NCBI RefSeq assembly: GCF_003334315.1
Contig: NZ_QOWR01000028.1
Length of the DNA stretch: 57,407 bases
Source: Escherichia coli
GTDB taxonomy: Bacteria; Pseudomonadota; Gammaproteobacteria; Enterobacterales; Enterobacteriaceae
Direction: 5' to 3' (one strand)
Under the pieces are notes generated by a model. That model was not told the DNA's origin and searched no databases. It was given only the letters and a program-made list of their open reading frames with translations. A program made the translations under genes and the position numbers. Positions 1-31,615 of this stretch are shown one piece after another. Position 1 is the first letter of the stretch. Each line of letters begins with the position of its first letter.

Positions 1-108
1 GTAGCGCGGTGGTCCCACCTGACCCCATGCCGAACTCAGAAGTGAAACGCCGTAGCGCCGATGGTAGTGTGGGGTCTCCCCATGCGAGAGTAGGGAACTG
101 CCAGGCAT
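1..108 (+). rRNA. rrfD: 5S ribosomal RNA, 5'-truncated by window edge (first ~12 nt missing)
   Basis: Sequence identical to the second complete 5S copy at 234-353 from its 13th base onward; ends in ...GGGAACTGCCAGGCAT. Confidence 0.95.
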
Positions 109-120
109 CAAATTTAGCGT

Positions 121-196
121 GCTGATATGGCTCAGTTGGTAGAGCGCACCCTTGGTAAGGGTGAGGTCCCCAGTTCGACTCTGGGTATCAGCACCA
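121..196 (+). tRNA. thrV: tRNA-Thr (GGT anticodon context CUUGGUAAG), 76 nt with encoded CCA
   Basis: GCTGATATGGCTCAGTTGGTAGAGCGCACCCTTGGTAAGGGTGAGGTCCCCAGTTCGACTCTGGGTATCAGCACCA: cloverleaf with GGT anticodon and T-loop GTTCGACTC; sits between two 5S genes as in rrnD. Confidence 0.95.
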
Positions 197-233
197 CTTT
201 TTAGGTTAAAGTTCGGCAGATTAGAAAAGAATT

Positions 234-353
234 TGTCTGGCGGCAGTAGCGCGGTGGTCCCACCTGACCCCATGCCGAACTCAGAAGTGAAACGCCGTAG
301 CGCCGATGGTAGTGTGGGGTCTCCCCATGCGAGAGTAGGGAACTGCCAGGCAT
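234..353 (+). rRNA. rrfF: 5S ribosomal RNA, complete 120 nt
   Basis: TGTCTGGCGGCAGTAGCGCGGTGGTCCCACCTGACCCCATGCCGAACTCAGAAGTG...GGGAACTGCCAGGCAT canonical enterobacterial 5S. Confidence 0.96.
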
Positions 354-357
354 CAAA

Positions 358-398
358 TAAAACGAAAGGCTCAGTCGGAAGACTGGGCCTTTCGTTTT
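358..398 (+). terminator. rrn operon terminator T1 (Rho-independent hairpin + T run)
   Basis: AAACGAAAGGCTCAGTCGGAAGACTGGGCCTTTCGTTTTAT: long GC stem followed by U tract immediately after 5S. Confidence 0.85.
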
Positions 399-528
399 AT
401 CTGTTGTTTGTCGGTGAACGCTCTCCTGAGTAGGACAAATCCGCCGGGAGCGGATTTGAACGTTGCGAAGCAACGGCCCGGAGGGTGGCGGGCAGGACGC
501 CCGCCATAAACTGCCAGACATCAAATCA

Positions 529-566
529 AGCGAAAGGCCATCCGAAAGGATGGCCTTTTTGCTTTT
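529..566 (+). terminator. rrn operon terminator T2
   Basis: AGCGAAAGGCCATCCGAAAGGATGGCCTTTTTGCTTTT: perfect hairpin GGCCATCC/GGATGGCC followed by T run. Confidence 0.85.
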
Positions 567-581
567 CGAACTAACATTCAA

Positions 582-1340
582 TTAATGGATTACCTGCGAT
601 AAAAATGCCCTCGTACGCTCTGATTTAGGATGCGCAAAAAATTCATCAGGTGCAGCTTGCTCCACTATTTCCCCACGATCCATAAAAATTACCCGGTCAG
701 CGACGGTTCGTGCAAACCCCATCTCATGTGTTACACACAACATTGTCATACCCGACTGCGCCAGCCCAATCATCGTATCCAGCACCTCTTTCACCATCTC
801 AGGATCGAGCGCCGACGTTGGCTCATCAAACAACATAATTTTCGGCTTCATACACAGCGAACGCGCAATGGCAACGCGTTGCTGCTGACCACCTGAAATC
901 TGTCCGGGAAACTTATGCGCATGTTCGGCAATTCTCACCCGCTCTAGGTAATGCACCGCCAGATCTTCAGCCTCTTTTTTAGGCATCTTGCGTACCCAAA
1001 TCGGTGCCAGGGTACAGTTCTGTAAAACGGTCAGATGAGGGAAGAGATTGAAATGCTGAAAGACCATTCCCACTTCCTGCCTGACGCGCTCAATATTGCG
1101 GATATCTTCATTAAGTTCGATGCCATCTACCACGATCCGTCCCTGTTGATGTTCTTCCAGATGATTAATACAACGAATGGTTGTCGATTTACCGGAACCT
1201 GAAGGGCCACACAGAACGATCCGTTCTCCCGGTTGCACGGTTAAATTTATATTTTTCAAAACATGGAATTGTCCATACCATTTATTGACGTTTTCCAGCG
1301 TAATCATCGCGTTAGCAGGTTGCAGTAAAATTTGGCTCAT
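582..1340 (-). CDS. yhdZ: ABC transporter ATP-binding protein (polar amino acid uptake family)
   Basis: 252 aa; Walker [13 protein letters not shown] signature LSGGQQQRV, Walker [13 protein letters not shown]-loop. Confidence 0.95.
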
Positions 1341-1347
1341 AGTGTCC

Positions 1348-2454
1348 TCAATGCGGTGTACGCCCGGTGTTAAAACGTTTTTCCAGATACTGGCTATAGC
1401 GCGACATGCTGAAACAGAAGATCCAGTAGATCAGCGCGGCGAAAACATACCCTTCCGTCGACATACCCAACCAGGCGGGATCAACGGTTGCCTGCTGAAC
1501 GCTACTGAAAAGATCGAACAACCCGATAATGATCACCAGGCTGGTATCTTTGAAGAGTGCGATGATGGTATTTACCAGCCCAGGAATTACCAGCTTCAAC
1601 GCCTGTGGCAGAATAACCAGCCCCTGAGTTTTCCAGTAACCCAACGCCAGCGACTCTGCCGCTTCATATTGCCCTTTAGGCAGCGCCTGTAATCCACCTC
1701 GCACGACTTCCGCAACATATGCTGACTGAAACAGGATCACGCCAACCAGCGCGCGGATCAATTTGTCGATACTGGTGCCTTCTGCCATAAACAACGGCAG
1801 CATGACCGAAGACATAAACAGAACGGTAATCAGCGGCACGCCGCGCCAGAATTCGATAAAAATGACCGATAAGATACGCACAATCGGCATATGGGAGCGG
1901 CGACCTAACGCCAGTAAGATCCCCCACGGTAGCGCCCCCGCAATCCCAACTGATGCAATAATTAAAGTTAGCGTCAGCCCGCCCCATTGCCGGGTTTCAA
2001 CCCGCTCAAGAGCAAAAAAACCGCCATACATCAGCCACCAGACAATCAGTGGGTAAATCACCGCCCAGGCCGCAATATAGCGACCGCGATGCGGGAGTAT
2101 TTTCCAGAACATTGGTGCGATCGACACAAGCCCAATCAGTAATGCGAGGTTAATTCGCCAGCGTTGGTCGTGTGGGTAAAGCCCATACATAAACTGACCA
2201 AATCGTTCGTGGATGAAGACCCAACAGGCACCGGCTTTTGTGCAGTCGGCACGCGTTGAGCCAACCCAGTTAGCCTGCAAAAATGCCCAGTTCAGCAACG
2301 GTGGGATCAGTTCCCACATCAACCATATGCAGCCAATAGTCAGCAGGCTATTGCTCCAGCTGGAGAACAGATTTTTTCGCACCCACACCATCGCGCGGCT
2401 TGAGTTATGGCTCGCCGGGCGCGGGGGATGAGACAGCAATACTTTTGTCATCAT
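1348..2454 (-). CDS. yhdY: ABC transporter permease (amino acid family); annotated start may be the 2nd Met (1348-2451)
   Basis: 368-aa hydrophobic ORF, multiple TM segments, 3-nt gap to yhdZ, operon context. Confidence 0.93.
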
Positions 2455-2460
2455 GACTCC

Positions 2461-3642
2461 TTAGCGTTCAACGATCGCGATGCGGCGGTTATAGATATTC
2501 ATCAGCAGCGAGATAGTCAGGCTGATAATCAGATAGACCGACATGGTCATGGCTATCGTCTCGATGGCTTGCCCCGTCTGATTCAGCACGGTGCCGGCAA
2601 ACAGCGAAACCATATCGGGATAGCCAATAGCGGCGGCAAGAGAGGAGTTTTTGACGATGTTGAGATACTGGCTGGTTAACGGTGGAATAATCACCCGCAA
2701 TGCCTGGGGAATAATGACCTGGCGTAGCGTAACCGGGTTGGGTAATCCCAGTGACCGAGCCGCTTCATGTTGACCATAAGGCACTGCCTGGATCCCAGCG
2801 CGGATAATCTCGGCGATAAATGCAGATGTATAAACCGAAAGTGCCAGCGTTAAGGCTGCCAGTTCAGGAATTAAAACCATCCCGCCGCGGAAGTTAAAGC
2901 CTCGTAGGGCTGGGACATCCCAGTGTAGTGCTGCGCCAAAAAGCCATTGCGCCAGTAAAGGCAAACCAATGATCAACACTGCGGCGATCGGCCAGGTGCG
3001 GCGCAGTTGTCCGGTCTTTATCTGGTATGTTTTATTAAAGCGGAATAGCCCAACAGAAAGGACTATAGCCATAACAACAGCCAGGATAAACGCAATAAAT
3101 CCGTCTCCCAGCTGCGGTGACGGAATATAAAGCCCACGATTGCTCAAAAAGGCCAGATCAAACGCGCTCACAGCCTGGCGTGGTCCGGGCAAATTGCGCA
3201 ACACGGCAAAGTACCAGAAGAAGATTTGCAGCAGCGGGGGAATATTACGGAAGATCTCAATATAAATTGTGGAAAGCTTTCGTAGCAGCCAGTTATCCGA
3301 AAGTCTCGCCAGACCGATAAAGAAGCCCAAAACAGAAGCGAACACAATACACAATGCAGAAACCAGTAGCGTATTGAGTAAGCCGACAATAAAAACGCGT
3401 CCGTAGGTGTCGCCCTGCTGGTAATCGATCAAATGCTGGACAATACCGAAGCCAGCGCCGCGATCCAGAAAGGCAAAACCTGAAGTAATGCCACGATTAT
3501 TGAGATTCGTTACAGTGTTGTGAAATAACCAACCAACAATGCCGACAACAGCAACAACGGCAAGGATCTGGAATAACCAGGCGCGAACCGTAGGGTTGGC
3601 AAAAGAGAGTGAGCCTTTAACGGTTGAGCGGCGATGAGACAT
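2461..3642 (-). CDS. yhdX: ABC transporter permease (amino acid family)
   Basis: ORF 2461-3660; known protein begins MSHRRSTVKGS (internal Met), 393 aa; polytopic membrane protein. Confidence 0.92.
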   Translation of the reverse strand: MSHRRSTVKGSLSFANPTVRAWLFQILAVVAVVGIVGWLFHNTVTNLNNRGITSGFAFLDRGAGFGIVQHLIDYQQGDTYGRVFIVGLLNTLLVSALCIVFASVLGFFIGLARLSDNWLLRKLSTIYIEIFRNIPPLLQIFFWYFAVLRNLPGPRQAVSAFDLAFLSNRGLYIPSPQLGDGFIAFILAVVMAIVLSVGLFRFNKTYQIKTGQLRRTWPIAAVLIIGLPLLAQWLFGAALHWDVPALRGFNFRGGMVLIPELAALTLALSVYTSAFIAEIIRAGIQAVPYGQHEAARSLGLPNPVTLRQVIIPQALRVIIPPLTSQYLNIVKNSSLAAAIGYPDMVSLFAGTVLNQTGQAIETIAMTMSVYLIISLTISLLMNIYNRRIAIVER

Positions 3643-3709
3643 AGAAACCTCGGAAAGCATAACGCTGAAGAGAGCGCCGCCGTAGCGACGCTCGTTACCT
3701 CACACCGAC

Positions 3710-4735
3710 TTAACGCACGGGCGGTGCGTACTGAATACCGCCGTTATTCCAGAGATTATTTTGCCCACGTTTAATTTTCAGCGGGCTTTCTGAACCTACG
3801 TTACGCTCAAAAATTTCCGAGTAGTTACCCACCTGTTTGATGATGTTATAGGCCCATTTATTATCCAACTTCAGATCCTTGCCGTAATCGCCTTCTTTAC
3901 CCAGCAGATGTGCCATATCAGGCGTTGCTGGATTAGCCGCTTTTTCATCGACGTTCTGGGAATTGATGCCCATCTCTTCAGCATTTAGCATGGCGAAAAG
4001 CGTCCAGCGTACAATCGAGAACCATTCATCATCGCCACGACGAACTACCGGCCCAAGCGGTTCTTTAGAGATAACCTCCGGTAAGACAATCCATTCAGCC
4101 GGGTTGCTTAATTTGATGCGCAGGGCATACAGTTGGGATTGATCCGAAGCCAGCGTATCGCAGCGACCAGATTCCAGTGCCTTCGCTGATTCGTCAGAGC
4201 GATCGAAAGTCACTGGTGTGTACTTCATATTGTTTGCCTTGAAATAGTCGGCGACGTTGAGTTCGGTATCAGTACCCGCCTGAATACAGACGGTAGCGCC
4301 ATCCAGTTCTTTCGCGCTTTTTAGCCCCGCTTTATCGTGCGTCAGGAAGCCAATGCCGTCGTAATAAGTGACGCCAGTAAATGCCATTCCCATCCCGGCA
4401 TCGCGAGATGAAGTCCAGGTCGTATTACGGGAGAGCAAATCCACCTCCCCTGACTGTAAAGCGGTGAAGCGTTCTTTTGCAGTGAGCGGGGTATATTTCA
4501 CTTTCGTGTCGTCACCAAATACAGCAGCGGCAACACCACGACAAATATCAACATCAATACCTGAAAATTTACCGTCAGCATCGGCATAAGAGAACCCAGG
4601 TAATCCATCACTGATCCCGCATTGCACAAAACCTTTTTTCTGTACGGCATCAAGCGTCGCGCCAGCATGCGCCTGATTTGCAACGGCAAGCAGCACGCTG
4701 GCGGCAGCCAGTGTGGCTATCATCATCTTTTTCAT
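3710..4735 (-). CDS. yhdW: periplasmic amino-acid-binding protein of ABC transporter
   Basis: 341 aa with N-terminal signal peptide MKKMMIATLAAASVLLAVANQAHA; solute-binding fold; first gene of yhdWXYZ. Confidence 0.94.
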   Translation of the reverse strand: MKKMMIATLAAASVLLAVANQAHAGATLDAVQKKGFVQCGISDGLPGFSYADADGKFSGIDVDICRGVAAAVFGDDTKVKYTPLTAKERFTALQSGEVDLLSRNTTWTSSRDAGMGMAFTGVTYYDGIGFLTHDKAGLKSAKELDGATVCIQAGTDTELNVADYFKANNMKYTPVTFDRSDESAKALESGRCDTLASDQSQLYALRIKLSNPAEWIVLPEVISKEPLGPVVRRGDDEWFSIVRWTLFAMLNAEEMGINSQNVDEKAANPATPDMAHLLGKEGDYGKDLKLDNKWAYNIIKQVGNYSEIFERNVGSESPLKIKRGQNNLWNNGGIQYAPPVR

Positions 4736-5165
4736 AATGCTTCCTGTGAGGCGAAAATTATCGTTATAGGACGTTTGGGAAACGTCTTTTACCTGTCTGT
4801 GGCCATCCTCTTATAAGCAAAAGTAGTGCCAGCTTTTGCGCACGATTTCGCGTCGCAATAAGCTGAGTGTAGACAGGAAATAATAAAAACAGCGCCCCGC
4901 AATGGTGCGAAAATGAAACATGCGCCACATTTTGGCGCAAAATATTTACGCGTGTTTTACTAAGCAGAATAATGATTGTTAGCGTGAGTATATTTCTGGT
5001 GGGAAGTGCGAAAGTTAAATTGATGCGTTATTTCGAAAGCAGCGAAATAACGCGATATAACATGCTAAGTCAGCAGAGAATTAGCCAGCAGAATATAGCA
5101 ATATTTTATCTTATGTAAAGATACTGTATCGTTAAACAGAGCGCGAAACTCCGCGCCCTGTTCAG

Positions 5166-5387
5166 TTATTTCGACAGAGCGATGATCCCCATCGTCAGGC
5201 CAGCAACAGCTGCTGCTCCGCCAGCAATAGCCCCAGCCGTTTCCCAGTTATCCTGAGTTGTGCCTTTCATACAGGTATTGGTGTGAACCAGACGCCCCTG
5301 ATCGTCATAAACCGGAACGCAGGGCGAATCGTGAGCACAGCCCGCCAGCAATGCGGTGAGCAATGCCACAGGAATTAATCTTTTCAT
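5166..5387 (-). CDS. yhdV: small outer-membrane lipoprotein
   Basis: 73 aa; lipobox LLAGC after signal peptide; Gly/Ala-rich C-terminal hydrophobic segment GAIAGGAAAVAGLTMGIIAL. Confidence 0.85.
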   Translation of the reverse strand: MKRLIPVALLTALLAGCAHDSPCVPVYDDQGRLVHTNTCMKGTTQDNWETAGAIAGGAAAVAGLTMGIIALSK

Positions 5388-5605
5388 GGTGTTACCTCAG
5401 TAATAAACGCTAACGCTTAATAAGTTAACTCTCTTATTAACGAGCTGAATGCCATTTTATCACCGGAGGTTATAAATCTTGCGGAATGAATAATGACAAA
5501 TTATGTGAATTGTAAAAATAGTGAAGGGAGCGGGAACTATAGAAAGCTTTTAAAGAGTGAGCAAAAGAATATCTTATTAATTTTTATGGGTTTCACTGAA
5601 AATAA

Positions 5606-27517: not shown

Positions 27518-30500
27518 GTGAGGCGATTGCCGGGGATTTTACTGCTTACTGGAGCCGCGCTCGTTGTGATCGCTGCCCTGCTGGTTAGCGGCCTGCGTAT
27601 TGCTTTACCGCATCTTGACGCCTGGCGTCCGGAAATCCTCAACAAAATAGAATCCGCGACTGGCATGCCGGTTGAAGCCAGTCAGCTCTCAGCCAGCTGG
27701 CAGAATTTTGGCCCGACGCTTGAAGCACACGACATCCGTGCAGAACTAAAAGATGGCGGCGAATTTTCGGTTAAACGCGTTACTCTGGCGCTGGATGTCT
27801 GGCAGAGCCTGTTACATATGCGCTGGCAGTTTCGCGATCTCACTTTCTGGCAGCTGCGCTTTCGCACCAACACTCCTATCACCAGCGGTGGTAGCGATGA
27901 CAGTCTGGAAGCCAGCCACATCAGCGATCTGTTTCTTCGTCAATTTGACCATTTCGATCTCCGCGACAGTGAAGTCAGTTTCCTGACGCCATCCGGTCAG
28001 CGCGCCGAGCTGGCGATCCCACAACTCACCTGGCTGAACGATCCACGTCGACACCGTGCGGAAGGTCTGGTAAGCCTCTCCAGCCTTACCGGACAGCACG
28101 GCGTAATGCAGGTGCGCATGGATTTGCGCGATGATGAGGGCTTGTTAAGCAATGGTCGCGTCTGGCTCCAGGCGGATGACATCGACCTGAAGCCGTGGCT
28201 CGGTAAATGGATGCAGGACAATATTGCGCTGGAAACGGCGCAGTTCTCCCTTGAAGGCTGGATGACGATCGATAAAGGCGATGTAACCGGTGGCGACGTC
28301 TGGCTGAAACAGGGCGGTGCCAGCTGGTTGGGCGAGAAGCAAACGCATACGCTGTCGGTGAATAATCTGACCGCGCATATTACGCGTGAAAATCCGGGCT
28401 GGCAGTTCTCTATTCCCGATACACGGATCACGATGGACGGCAAACCCTGGCCGAGCGGAGCATTGACGCTAGCCTGGATACCGGAACAGGACGTTGGCGG
28501 CAAAGACAATAAACGCAGTGACGAACTCCGGATTCGCGCCAGTAATCTGGAGCTGGCAGGCCTGGAGGGCATACGCCCGCTGGCCGCGAAACTTTCACCT
28601 GCACTGGGTGATGTTTGGCGCTCCACACAACCGAGCGGCAAGATTAACACTCTGGCGCTGGATATCCCGCTTCAGGCGGCAGACAAGACCCGTTTTCAGG
28701 CATCGTGGAGCGATCTGGCCTGGAAGCAATGGAAATTATTACCGGGTGCGGAACACTTCTCCGGGACGCTTTCCGGCAGCGTTGAAAATGGTTTGCTTAC
28801 CGCGTCGATGAAGCAGGCAAAGATGCCTTACGAAACGGTATTCCGTGCGCCACTGGAAATCGCCGACGGCCAGGCAACTATAAGCTGGCTGAACAATGAC
28901 AAAGGTTTCCAGCTGGATGGGAGTGATATTGACGTTAAAGCCAAAGCCGTCCATGCGCGCGGCGGTTTTCGTTACCTGCAACCTGCTAACGATGAACCCT
29001 GGCTGGGTATTCTGGCTGGCATCAGTACCGATGATGGTTCACAAGCCTGGCGCTATTTCCCGGAAAACTTGATGGGTAAAGACCTGGTTGATTACTTAAG
29101 TGGCGCGATTCAGGGCGGTGAAGCGGATAACGCGACGCTGGTTTATGGTGGCAATCCGCAACTCTTCCCCTATAAACACAACGAAGGTCAGTTTGAAGTG
29201 CTGGTGCCGCTGCGCAACGCGAAGTTTGCCTTCCAGCCGGACTGGCCTGCATTAACTAACCTTGATATTGAACTGGACTTTATTAACGACGGTTTATGGA
29301 TGAAAACCGATGGCGTTAATCTGGGCGGCGTGCGCGCGAGTAATCTCACCGCAGTGATCCCTGACTACTCGAAAGAAAAACTGCTGATTGACGCTGACAT
29401 TAAAGGTCCGGGTAAAGCCGTTGGCCCTTACTTTGATGAGACACCGCTGAAAGATTCTCTGGGGGCGACCCTGCAAGAACTCCAGCTCGACGGCGATGTG
29501 AATGCTCGCTTACATCTTGATATCCCGCTGAACGGCGAACTGGTAACCGCGAAAGGTGAAGTGACGCTGCGTAATAACAGTCTGTTTATCAAACCACTCG
29601 ACAGCACCCTGAAAAATTTGAGCGGTAAATTCAGCTTTATCAATAGCGATCTGCAAAGTGAACCACTGACAGCAAGCTGGTTTAATCAGCCGTTGAACGT
29701 GGATTTTTCCACCAAAGAAGGGGCAAAAGCCTACCAGGTAGCGGTAAACCTCAACGGTAACTGGCAACCGGCGAAAACCGGCGTTCTGCCTGAAGCGGTG
29801 AACGAAGCATTGAGTGGCAGCGTGGCGTGGGATGGTAAAGTGGGCATTGATCTGCCTTATCATGCTGGTGCGACCTATAACATAGAGCTGAACGGCGATC
29901 TAAAGAATGTGAGCAGTCACTTACCTTCACCGTTAGCCAAACCTGCGGGTGAACCACTAGCGGTAAACGTTAAGGTTGATGGCAATCTCAACAGCTTTGA
30001 ATTAACCGGACAGGCTGGTGCGGATAATCATTTCAATAGCCGCTGGTTGCTCGGTCAAAAGCTGACGCTCGACCGTGCTATTTGGGCGGCAGACAGTAAA
30101 ACGCTCCCGCCGTTGCCGGAACAAAGTGGTGTTGAACTCAATATGCCGCCGATGAATGGTGCCGAGTGGCTGGCCCTGTTTCAGAAAGGTGCGGCGGAGA
30201 GTGTCGGTGGTGCAGCGAGTTTCCCACAACACATAACGTTACGTACGCCTATGTTGTCGCTGGGAAATCAGCAATGGAATAACCTGAGTATTGTTTCGCA
30301 ACCGACGGCAAATGGCACCCAGGTTGAGGCGCAAGGGCGTGAAATCAACGCCACGCTGGCGATGCGTAATAACGCGCCGTGGCTGGCGAATATCAAATAT
30401 CTTTATTACAACCCGAGCGTGGCGAAAACTCGTGGTGATTCAACGCCGTCATCACCTTTCCCGACAACGGAGCGCATTAACTTCCGTGGCTGGCCGGACG

Positions 30501-31318
30501 CACAAATACGATGCGCAGAGTGCTGGTTCTGGGGGCAAAAATTCGGTCGTATTGACAGTGATCTCACCATTTCTGGCGATACATTAACGCTGACCAATGG
30601 ACTGATTGATACTGGTTTCTCGCGGCTTACTGCCGATGGTGAATGGGTTAATAATCCGGGGAATGAACGTACCTCGCTGAAAGGAAAACTGCGCGGGCAG
30701 AAAATTGATGCCGCCGCAGAATTTTTTGGTGTCACGACGCCCATACGCCAGTCGTCATTTAATGTGGATTACGATTTACACTGGCGCAAAGCACCCTGGC
30801 AGCCAGATGAAGCGACGTTGAATGGCATCATTCATACTCAACTGGGTAAAGGCGAAATTACCGAAATCAATACCGGACATGCCGGGCAATTGCTGCGCTT
30901 ATTGAGCGTAGATGCCCTGATGCGTAAGCTGCGTTTTGATTTCAGAGACACTTTTGGCGAAGGGTTCTATTTTGACTCCATTCGCAGCACCGCGTGGATT
31001 AAAGACGGCGTTATGCACACCGACGACACGCTGGTGGATGGCCTGGAGGCGGATATCGCCATGAAAGGGTCGGTAAATCTGGTACGTCGCGACCTGAATA
31101 TGGAAGCGGTTGTCGCACCAGAGATTTCTGCGACGGTGGGCGTGGCTGCGGCTTTTGCGGTTAACCCCATTGTTGGCGCGGCAGTGTTTGCCGCCAGTAA
31201 AGTGCTGGGGCCGCTGTGGAGCAAAGTCTCCATTTTGCGCTATCACATTTCGGGTCCGCTGGACGATCCGCAAATCAACGAAGTGTTGCGCCAACCGCGT
31301 AAAGAAAAAGCGCAATGA
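27518..31318 (+). CDS. yhdP: AsmA-like large envelope-spanning protein (phospholipid transport to outer membrane)
   Basis: 1266 aa; single N-terminal TM anchor then long periplasmic region. Confidence 0.95.
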   Translation: MRRLPGILLLTGAALVVIAALLVSGLRIALPHLDAWRPEILNKIESATGMPVEASQLSASWQNFGPTLEAHDIRAELKDGGEFSVKRVTLALDVWQSLLHMRWQFRDLTFWQLRFRTNTPITSGGSDDSLEASHISDLFLRQFDHFDLRDSEVSFLTPSGQRAELAIPQLTWLNDPRRHRAEGLVSLSSLTGQHGVMQVRMDLRDDEGLLSNGRVWLQADDIDLKPWLGKWMQDNIALETAQFSLEGWMTIDKGDVTGGDVWLKQGGASWLGEKQTHTLSVNNLTAHITRENPGWQFSIPDTRITMDGKPWPSGALTLAWIPEQDVGGKDNKRSDELRIRASNLELAGLEGIRPLAAKLSPALGDVWRSTQPSGKINTLALDIPLQAADKTRFQASWSDLAWKQWKLLPGAEHFSGTLSGSVENGLLTASMKQAKMPYETVFRAPLEIADGQATISWLNNDKGFQLDGSDIDVKAKAVHARGGFRYLQPANDEPWLGILAGISTDDGSQAWRYFPENLMGKDLVDYLSGAIQGGEADNATLVYGGNPQLFPYKHNEGQFEVLVPLRNAKFAFQPDWPALTNLDIELDFINDGLWMKTDGVNLGGVRASNLTAVIPDYSKEKLLIDADIKGPGKAVGPYFDETPLKDSLGATLQELQLDGDVNARLHLDIPLNGELVTAKGEVTLRNNSLFIKPLDSTLKNLSGKFSFINSDLQSEPLTASWFNQPLNVDFSTKEGAKAYQVAVNLNGNWQPAKTGVLPEAVNEALSGSVAWDGKVGIDLPYHAGATYNIELNGDLKNVSSHLPSPLAKPAGEPLAVNVKVDGNLNSFELTGQAGADNHFNSRWLLGQKLTLDRAIWAADSKTLPPLPEQSGVELNMPPMNGAEWLALFQKGAAESVGGAASFPQHITLRTPMLSLGNQQWNNLSIVSQPTANGTQVEAQGREINATLAMRNNAPWLANIKYLYYNPSVAKTRGDSTPSSPFPTTERINFRGWPDAQIRCAECWFWGQKFGRIDSDLTISGDTLTLTNGLIDTGFSRLTADGEWVNNPGNERTSLKGKLRGQKIDAAAEFFGVTTPIRQSSFNVDYDLHWRKAPWQPDEATLNGIIHTQLGKGEITEINTGHAGQLLRLLSVDALMRKLRFDFRDTFGEGFYFDSIRSTAWIKDGVMHTDDTLVDGLEADIAMKGSVNLVRRDLNMEAVVAPEISATVGVAAAFAVNPIVGAAVFAASKVLGPLWSKVSILRYHISGPLDDPQINEVLRQPRKEKAQ

Positions 31319-31382: not shown

Positions 31383-31615
31383 GAACATAACCGTAGGTCG
31401 GATAGGGCGTTCACGCCGCATCCGGCAGCCGTTGCCTGATGCGACGCTGTGCGTCTTATCAGGCCTACAAACGGAACATAACCGTAGGTCGGATAAGGCG
31501 TTTACGCCGCATCCGACAGCCGTTGCCTGATGCGACGCTGTGCGTCTTATCAGGCCTACAAACCGGAACATAACCGTAGGCTGGATAGGGCGTTCACGCC
31601 GCATCCGGCAGCCGT
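31383..31615. repeat. BIME: tandem array of REP (palindromic unit) elements, about 2.5 copies of a ~91-bp composite
   Basis: AACATAACCGTAGGTCGGATAGGGCGTTCACGCCGCATCCGGCAGCCGTTGCCTGATGCGACGCTGTGCGTCTTATCAGGCCTACAAACGG repeated at 31383, 31474 and 31565 (last truncated). Confidence 0.92.

Follow-up and report, generated by a model that had tools for sequence, protein, structure and literature searches.

The closest described counterpart of the system considered here, the yhdWXYZ operon of Escherichia coli, is the orthologous four-gene operon of Citrobacter rodentium (Borde et al., 2026; bioRxiv 10.64898/2026.05.04.722672), which likewise encodes an ATP-binding cassette (ABC) transporter with an intact binding protein. 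The E. coli locus lies at the beginning of a 57,407-nucleotide stretch of DNA (contig NZ_QOWR01000028.1 of assembly GCF_003334315.1; hereafter the window, to whose whole 57 kb all coordinates refer), of which positions 1-5400 represent the E. coli rrnD-yhd region, reversed relative to its orientation in K-12. YhdX, YhdY, and YhdZ of C. rodentium are 85, 89, and 92% identical to those of K-12 (Borde et al., 2026), values that match the medians of the family relative to the window proteins (85.6, 89.6, and 93.7%). Purified C. rodentium YhdW binds L-asparagine with a Kd of 0.37 µM as measured by isothermal titration calorimetry (ITC), and in thermal shift assays with 20 amino acids asparagine was the only one to give a clear, dose-dependent shift; glutamine, serine, arginine, and valine gave little or none, and binding of valine was absent in ITC (Borde et al., 2026). 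C. rodentium is a different species, and asparagine binding was measured on its protein rather than on E. coli YhdW.

Further systems invite comparison. E. coli K-12 MG1655 (b3268-b3271) shares with the window the locus itself, the neighbors yhdV, acrEF, and rrnD, and the promoter with its upstream sites, but its yhdW lacks nucleotide 68 and is a pseudogene, whereas the window allele is intact. BztABCD of Rhodobacter capsulatus and AapJQMP of Rhizobium leguminosarum resemble yhdWXYZ in gene order, in a binding protein of ~340 amino acids, and in permeases of ~370-400 amino acids. Both are reported to be broad in specificity (Glu/Gln/Asp/Asn or general L-amino acids), in contrast to the in vitro selectivity of C. 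rodentium YhdW for asparagine, and nitrogen limitation reportedly induces Aap. The canonical importers GlnHPQ, GltIJKL, HisJQMP, ArtPIQMJ, and TcyJLN belong to the same polar amino acid uptake (PAAT) family and share its Pfam domains and ATPase motifs; the models of the canonical E. coli importers span 212-238 positions, far fewer than the 393 and 367 amino acids of YhdX and YhdY. Several canonical importers are also under NtrC/σ54 control, hisJQMP and argT among those listed (PMC4066584).

The evidence from the window and from the literature makes it probable that yhdWXYZ encodes a nitrogen-regulated (Ntr) PAAT importer that serves in nitrogen scavenging and has asparagine as its most likely high-affinity ligand. 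Gene integrity, family assignment, conservation of the promoter and its upstream sites, covariation, and synteny were established in the present analysis, while asparagine binding, NtrC binding, and fitness effects are taken from the literature.

The yhdWXYZ genes and their products

The transporter genes, each with the evidence for its assignment (ORF, open reading frame), are as follows.

3710-4735, minus strand: yhdW, periplasmic substrate-binding protein of 341 amino acids, intact (ORF list, annotation of strain ES6, match to structure 4z9n)
2461-3642, minus strand: yhdX, permease of 393 amino acids, the ORF extending to 3660 (BPD_transp_1 domain, EAA loop at residue 293)
1348-2451, minus strand: yhdY, permease of 367 amino acids, the ORF extending to 2454 (HEQRo_perm_3TM domain, EAA loop)
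582-1340, minus strand: yhdZ, ABC ATPase of 252 amino acids (ABC motifs, ES6 annotation)

All four ORFs are uninterrupted, follow one another on the minus strand in the order yhdW-yhdX-yhdY-yhdZ, and are identical in extent to the RefSeq coding sequences of strain ES6, a 100%-identical genome. A preliminary description of the window, made from its sequence alone, had reported four intact, tightly spaced genes and named them yhdWXYZ; both statements are correct. Measured from the annotated starts, the genes are separated by 67 bp (yhdW-yhdX), 9 bp (yhdX-yhdY), and 7 bp (yhdY-yhdZ), so that the range of 3-67 bp given earlier is exact at its upper end and slightly too low at its lower, the measured minimum being 7 bp. 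The base that K-12 MG1655 is missing, whose deletion has already been published (Borde et al., 2026), is present here at position 4668, nucleotide 68 of yhdW.

Membership in the PAAT family is evident from each of the products. YhdW matches Pfam SBP_bac_3 (E 1.3e-15) and, as read from its translation, begins with a signal peptide ending ...NQAHA|GATL. Among solved structures its closest relative is 4z9n, an amino-acid-binding protein from Brucella ovis, to which residues 22-341 align end to end (E 5e-122); the next structural matches follow at ~1e-20, and all of its relatives in the PDB are amino-acid-binding proteins. YhdX, which was covered together with YhdW in the Pfam run, contains BPD_transp_1 (E 7e-15), and both permeases exceed the cut-off of 42.2 bits for TIGR01726 (YhdX 60.4, YhdY 69.6) and have EAA coupling loops. 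The NCBIfam matches of YhdX fall into two stretches, residues 90-153 and ~230-393 of the 399-residue ORF, which suggests that the protein contains an insert between them. YhdZ displays the full set of ATPase motifs, namely Walker A at residue 45 (GPSGSGKS), the Q-loop at 94, the signature ISGGQ at 148, Walker B at 168 (IMLFDEP), and the H-loop THE at 204, and its best NCBIfam matches are ATPases of the GlnQ, EhuA, and TcyN types. For none of the four proteins does any NCBIfam equivalog or subfamily model (Gln, Glu/Asp, His, Arg, cystine, and ectoine types) reach its cut-off, as exemplified by GlnQ (319 against 379) and the GltI type (80 against 375).

The locus thus presents the features expected of the PAAT family, a secreted family-3 binding protein, two BPD_transp_1/HEQRo permeases with EAA loops, and an ATPase with complete motifs, and it also presents the architecture of AapJQMP and BztABCD, in which genes for a binding protein of ~340 amino acids, two permeases of ~370-400 amino acids, and an ATPase follow one another in that order. 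By these sequence characters yhdWXYZ is a type I ABC importer of the PAAT family, within the enlarged AapJQMP/BztABCD subgroup, and uptake itself is predicted. The earlier proposal of an ABC importer of the amino-acid type is upheld by the Pfam and TIGR01726 matches, the ATPase motifs, and the EAA loops.

This is an ordinary, intact operon of the E. coli core genome, already known as an amino-acid ABC importer. The 4.15-kb operon was found in all 5426 complete E. coli genomes, 5415 of which have at least 80% of it, and the undeleted 41-mer around nucleotide 68 of yhdW occurs in at least 4862 of the 5426; the intact allele is the rule and the K-12 deletion the exception. Comparison across species was based on a scan in which each species was represented by a single genome; it returned 482 relatives, from which the best 80 loci were kept, all at least 90% identical in YhdW. 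Within these best 80 of 482, YhdW identity ranges from 90 to 99% across ~25 genera of Enterobacteriaceae, and yhdW is an intact ORF of 341 amino acids in 80 of 80. Relative to Citrobacter amalonaticus, yhdW has 82% nucleotide identity; the codons that differ do so synonymously in 167 cases and non-synonymously in 9, a ratio indicative of strongly purifying selection.

Binding proteins generally diverge fastest among the components of such systems. The median identities to the window across species are 93.5% for YhdW, 85.6% for YhdX, 89.6% for YhdY, and 93.7% for YhdZ; the binding protein is conserved as well as the ATPase and better than both permeases, which is an unusual pattern. Residues R111, D198, and T105/T106 of YhdW are invariant across the 80 orthologues and are presumed to be amino-acid anchors, R111 and D198 contacting the α-carboxylate and α-ammonium groups, respectively.

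From the σ54 promoter to a probable shared terminator

Upstream of yhdW, three conserved elements are discernible.

4816-4831, minus strand: σ54 promoter with −24/−12 elements TGGCACTACTTTTGCT (motif scan, conservation in 79 species, genomic SELEX)
4894-4939, minus strand: NtrC-like upstream activator sites, TGCGCCAAAATGTGGCGCA at 4921-4939 and CGCACCATTGCGGGGCG at ~4894-4910 (alignment)
4856-4877, minus strand: CCTGTCTACACTCAGCTTATTG, a highly conserved block that separates the promoter from the activator sites (alignment)

The promoter is the sole match without mismatch to TGGCAC-N5-TTGCW in the 57-kb window, and its 5′ end precedes the start codon of yhdW by 96 nt. Among the species loci, TGGCAY-N5-TTGCT occurs at a distance of 91-115 nt before this ATG in all 79 that have upstream sequence, with the GG and GC elements fixed and the spacer between them variable. 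Centered ~75-110 nt upstream of the −24 element, the two NtrC-like dyads stand out as conserved islands across ~22 genera in an alignment of 23 sequences. The region comprising the promoter and upstream sites is 100% identical to K-12, and for this reason chromatin immunoprecipitation (ChIP) data from K-12 apply to the window. Such data list yhdWXYZ as an NtrC ChIP-seq target, with a peak and supporting expression data (PMC4066584), and genomic SELEX places an RpoN peak in the yhdV-yhdX spacer (PMC8743547); another paper also names the operon as NtrC-regulated. In addition, ZraSR is said to regulate the operon (Borde et al., 2026), ZraR being a further σ54 activator. By promoter spacing, NtrC-like sites, and the K-12 ChIP-seq peak, yhdWXYZ belongs to the NtrC/σ54 regulon, and its expression as a member of that regulon is predicted for the strain considered here.

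The block between the activator sites and the promoter, of 13-22 bp (CCTGTCTACACTC...), is almost invariant across genera. Within it, ACTCAGCTTATTG agrees with the IHF consensus WATCAANNNNTTR at 7 of 9 specified positions and is preceded by an A/T tract. Conceivably, this block, which was assigned by eye, may be an IHF bending site. A possible covarying pair around the promoter, CCTGTCT upstream and AGACAGG in the untranslated region (UTR), was rejected on inspection by eye, as species that alter one side keep the other.

Farther along the transcript, a stem-loop occupies the gap between the first two genes.

3672-3693, minus strand: yhdW-yhdX stem-loop, a 9-bp GC-rich stem with a 4-nt loop (RNAalifold, individual folds)

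This structure begins 17 nt past the yhdW stop codon, and RNAalifold applied to 22 genera recovers 9 pairs; compensatory double changes are seen at 8 of these. An intercistronic stem-loop is the usual device by which a binding protein is produced in excess over its membrane complex. The element in the window is probably such an attenuator or messenger RNA stabilizer, yielding more binding protein than permease.

At its 3′ end the operon meets a ribosomal RNA unit.

1-351, plus strand: rrnD-type tail, made up of the 3′ portion of a 5S gene truncated by the start of the window (1-106), then tRNA-Thr(GGU) (121-196), and then an entire 5S gene (236-351) (Rfam, ARAGORN)
357-400, plus strand: rrn terminator T1, a hairpin of 20 pairs that leads into a T-run (terminator scan, sequence reading)
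532-559, both strands: rrn terminator T2, a GC-rich hairpin of 11-12 bp with T-rich tails on both strands (terminator scan, sequence reading)

The genes of this tail are convergent with yhdZ and have the order rrfD-thrV-rrfF of K-12, which is also the order in ES6. T2 sits 23 nt past the yhdZ stop codon, and this bidirectional hairpin probably ends the yhdWXYZ transcript as well as the rrn unit. The placement of the operon beside rrn terminators, as first described, is confirmed by the Rfam and ARAGORN genes and the two hairpins; its interpretation as insulation is not, as the adjacency is an old, conserved synteny that reflects convergent termination. A convergent 5S gene follows yhdZ in 70 of the 80 Enterobacteriaceae species loci, a count to be read as at least 70, as the remaining ten contigs, in which no 5S is visible, mostly end 76-238 bp past yhdZ. 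Since the arrangement recurs so widely, the location beside rrn is ancient synteny rather than a strain-specific trait, and there is nothing remarkable in it. In most relatives the assemblies break right at the convergent yhdZ/5S junction, at the equivalent of window positions 352-581.

Substrate, mechanism, and competing readings

In the mechanism proposed here, YhdW would be exported by way of its Sec signal peptide and would capture an L-amino acid in the periplasm, most likely asparagine as the high-affinity ligand. Loaded YhdW would then dock on a YhdX-YhdY heterodimer, and hydrolysis of ATP by a YhdZ dimer would drive uptake. The operon would be transcribed from the σ54 promoter when NtrC is bound ~75-110 bp upstream, and expression under nitrogen limitation, as a scavenging system, follows from the presence of an NtrC-activated σ54 promoter. 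The stem-loop after yhdW would probably raise the level of the binding protein relative to the membrane complex, and transcription would end at the bidirectional T2 hairpin of the rrn unit.

The published phenotypes place the system in the host. In mice, a C. rodentium yhd mutant shows reduced fecal loads at days 4-6, an early colonization defect (Borde et al., 2026). In uropathogenic E. coli (UPEC), a Yhd deletion has a log2 fold change of −2.69 in kidneys; of the four peptide and amino-acid systems compared singly, Yhd shows the most severe defect in this organ (Shea et al., 2024; PMC11032443). The preliminary description had regarded the substrate as not established, a statement overtaken by the submicromolar binding of asparagine to C. 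rodentium YhdW. It had also envisaged that publication of a substrate might reveal redundancy with a known transporter and no specific phenotype. This has nearly come about, in that asparagine and a reading of redundancy have both been published, but the in vivo phenotypes in C. rodentium and UPEC stand against the last part.

Several observations weigh against the proposal of an asparagine importer. In asnA asnB auxotrophs of C. rodentium, the yhd deletion impairs neither growth nor competition, a result that the authors explain by redundancy, and the antibiotic sensitivity of the K-12 deletion, made in a strain that has no binding protein, is not predicted by an importer model (Borde et al., 2026). 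No transport measurement is on record for any enterobacterial YhdWXYZ. Furthermore, the transfer of asparagine as ligand to the YhdW of this strain would rest on family-wide conservation and invariant residues, not on a direct comparison with the C. rodentium protein, and with no NCBIfam equivalog reaching its cut-off, sequence by itself leaves the specificity unfixed.

The first of these points may have an explanation in the growth medium. By its standard recipe, M63 contains ~15 mM ammonium sulphate and is ammonium-rich. Because a σ54/NtrC promoter should be off under such conditions, the null phenotype with asparagine in vitro may reflect a lack of expression rather than redundancy. The assays of growth and competition were performed in M63, and the preprint that describes them never mentions NtrC or σ54 (Borde et al., 2026).

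The alternative that survives best, although it is unlikely, is that YhdWXYZ is a broad general L-amino-acid permease akin to AapJQMP and BztABCD, accepting Glu/Gln/Asp/Asn or a wider range, and that asparagine is merely its tightest binder. The four-gene architecture, the enlarged binding protein and permeases, and the end-to-end homology of YhdW to the BztA-like structure 4z9n all fit this idea, as does the label of general L-amino-acid transporter that KEGG (K09972 group) and several papers give to yhdWXYZ, and a role in nitrogen scavenging would favor breadth. It is difficult to reconcile with the thermal shift and ITC results for C. rodentium YhdW described above, where one amino acid of 20 produced a clear response and valine did not bind.

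Distinctly less probable is the notion that the physiological ligand is a host- or diet-derived derivative rather than a free proteinogenic amino acid, with asparagine acting as its surrogate. It would account for the absence of an in vitro growth phenotype with asparagine alongside the colonization and kidney defects in vivo, and the published screen covered only the 20 standard amino acids. A Kd of 0.37 µM, however, is typical of a cognate ligand, the presumed anchors R111 and D198 are invariant, and a promoter that is silent in ammonium-rich M63 explains the null phenotype more simply.

A third alternative concerns regulation instead of substrate. According to the preliminary description, an upstream inverted repeat, together with proximity to the rrn terminators, suggests tightly insulated, regulated expression of the operon; on this reading the repeat would serve as an operator.

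5025-5053, both strands: inverted repeat GCGTTATTTCG-ctgcttt-CGAAATAACGC, perfect 11-bp arms with a 7-nt loop (sequence reading)

The repeat does exist where it was described, as a perfect 11-7-11 palindrome whose RNA form has a folding energy of −12.4 kcal/mol; it is kept in 5346 of the 5426 E. coli genomes, and the convergent units are indeed set apart by strong terminators. Beyond E. coli the picture changes, in that Escherichia whittamii and two divergent genomes of the genus lack the left arm and none of the 80 species loci has the exact repeat, whereas the σ54 promoter and NtrC-like sites are conserved everywhere. The palindrome is confined to E. coli sensu stricto, lies in the poorly conserved distal part of the spacer, and would have a lineage-specific function, if any. 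Its arms resemble the TTATTT/AAATAA of NagC/Mlc operators, which require TT-N9-AA at positions ±5 and 6 around the dyad center (PMC4288165), a rule that the nagE operator obeys. The palindrome has TC/GA at these invariant positions, its TTATTTC arms being 2 bp too far apart, and assignment as a NagC/Mlc operator was rejected. It was likewise rejected as a terminator, as a T-run is absent on both strands and it is not among the results of the terminator scan. Operator control of yhdWXYZ by this element is accordingly very improbable.

Least credible of all is the proposal, made for K-12, that the system mainly serves drug efflux or "antibiotic homeostasis," given that in this strain deletion of yhdWXYZ increases sensitivity to lomefloxacin and mecillinam and leads to accumulation of lomefloxacin (Borde et al., 2026), because this phenotype is seen only where yhdW is a pseudogene and not in C. 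rodentium, whose system is complete as in the window, and because the type I importer architecture and the intact, strongly conserved binding protein favor import.

The yhdW leader, a possible GcvB site, and the surroundings of the operon

The transcript that would start at the σ54 promoter of the proposed Ntr-regulated importer has a short leader with several conserved features.

4736-4804, minus strand: yhdW 5′ UTR of ~70-80 nt (multi-genus alignments, the start placed by its spacing from the −12 element)
4792-4800, minus strand: UTR 9-mer ACAGACAGG (conserved in alignments)
4770-4786, minus strand: UTR hairpin GACGT-N7-ACGTC (alignments, pair counts)
4758-4767, minus strand: UTR box ATAACGATAA, invariant, just upstream of the Shine-Dalgarno sequence CAGGA (alignments)

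Covariation support for the hairpin at 4770-4786 is weak. A count directed at this structure found 82% of cells paired, with modest covariation and a score that 15 of 500 shuffles reach, and RNAalifold did not recover the GACGT/ACGTC hairpin from the 5′ UTR alignment. A permissive Rfam scan of 3600-5200, which includes the leader, the intergenic region, and the yhdW-yhdX gap, returned no RNA family at E ≤ 1.

The 9-mer, which lies near the 5′ end of the σ54 transcript, is perfectly complementary to nucleotides 153-161 of GcvB, the amino-acid master small RNA, where the R3 seed (nt ~154-162) has been experimentally defined (PMC9299463). Of 79 species, 64 have this 9-mer unaltered and 2 more have it with wobble-compatible changes; it occurs only once more in the window. 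With duplex computations restricted to seed regions (an unrestricted, whole-length duplexfold run gave a meaningless full-length duplex), pairing of GcvB R3 with the leader yields −21.0 kcal/mol, as compared with −14.9 ± 3.5 for shuffled sequences, 6% of which reach this value; pairing of R1 with the leader is no better than that of shuffled sequences. The chance that the two RNAs share some 9-nt complement was estimated at ~0.07, and the GcvB match is best taken as a lead suggested by sequence rather than as a finding.

Interactome studies are understood to use nitrogen-rich media. Because K-12 has only a pseudogene of yhdW, and because the promoter should be silent in such media, a GcvB target at this position could have been missed. 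In the published account of the GcvB regulon, yhd goes unmentioned in the main text (PMC9299463). It could be, then, though it is doubtful, that yhdW outside K-12 is an unrecognized target of the GcvB R3 seed and, linked to this, that the null result with asparagine stems from non-expression in M63.

Beyond the importer and its control region lies the upstream neighbor of the operon.

5166-5387, minus strand: yhdV, small lipoprotein gene of 73 amino acids, the upstream neighbor, outside the transporter (ORF list, ES6, K-12, synteny)

Immediately past its stop codon yhdV has a hairpin of its own, and the next neighbor beyond it is acrF, as in K-12. A σ70-like promoter downstream of yhdV (5092-5119, minus strand; TTTACA-16-TATATT with TG) was considered and rejected, the region not being conserved; its −35 region reads CTCTCCA in K-12 and CTTTACA here, so that the site varies between strains, and σ70-like matches in the window are no more numerous than in shuffled sequence. 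In many genera other than Escherichia, a CRP-like element, GTGA-N6-TCAC, with TATATT ~33 nt later, is found ~300 nt upstream of yhdW; it was noted in nine of the species loci and sits at the place that the palindrome takes in E. coli. Its sequence suggests a second, CRP-dependent σ70 promoter that E. coli does not have. Elsewhere in the window, two tandem matches to Rfam naRNA4 (RF02564), at 31396-31465 and 31487-31556 on the plus strand (71 and 77 bits), lie shortly after a long ORF (27518-31318) and are presumably repetitive extragenic palindromic-type repeats.

The present analysis corrects the idea that the operon is controlled by the nearby palindrome or by the rRNA terminators. The importance of the operon is modest: it belongs to the E. 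coli core genome and has a fitness role in the mouse gut (Citrobacter) and in the kidney (UPEC), and its true substrate and inducing condition bear on the acquisition of nitrogen by enteric bacteria within the host. The conserved σ54/NtrC promoter predicts expression only under nitrogen limitation, a condition not used in the published tests of phenotype. If non-expression in M63 does underlie the null phenotype, YhdWXYZ would be the high-affinity asparagine scavenger of nitrogen-starved enteric bacteria.

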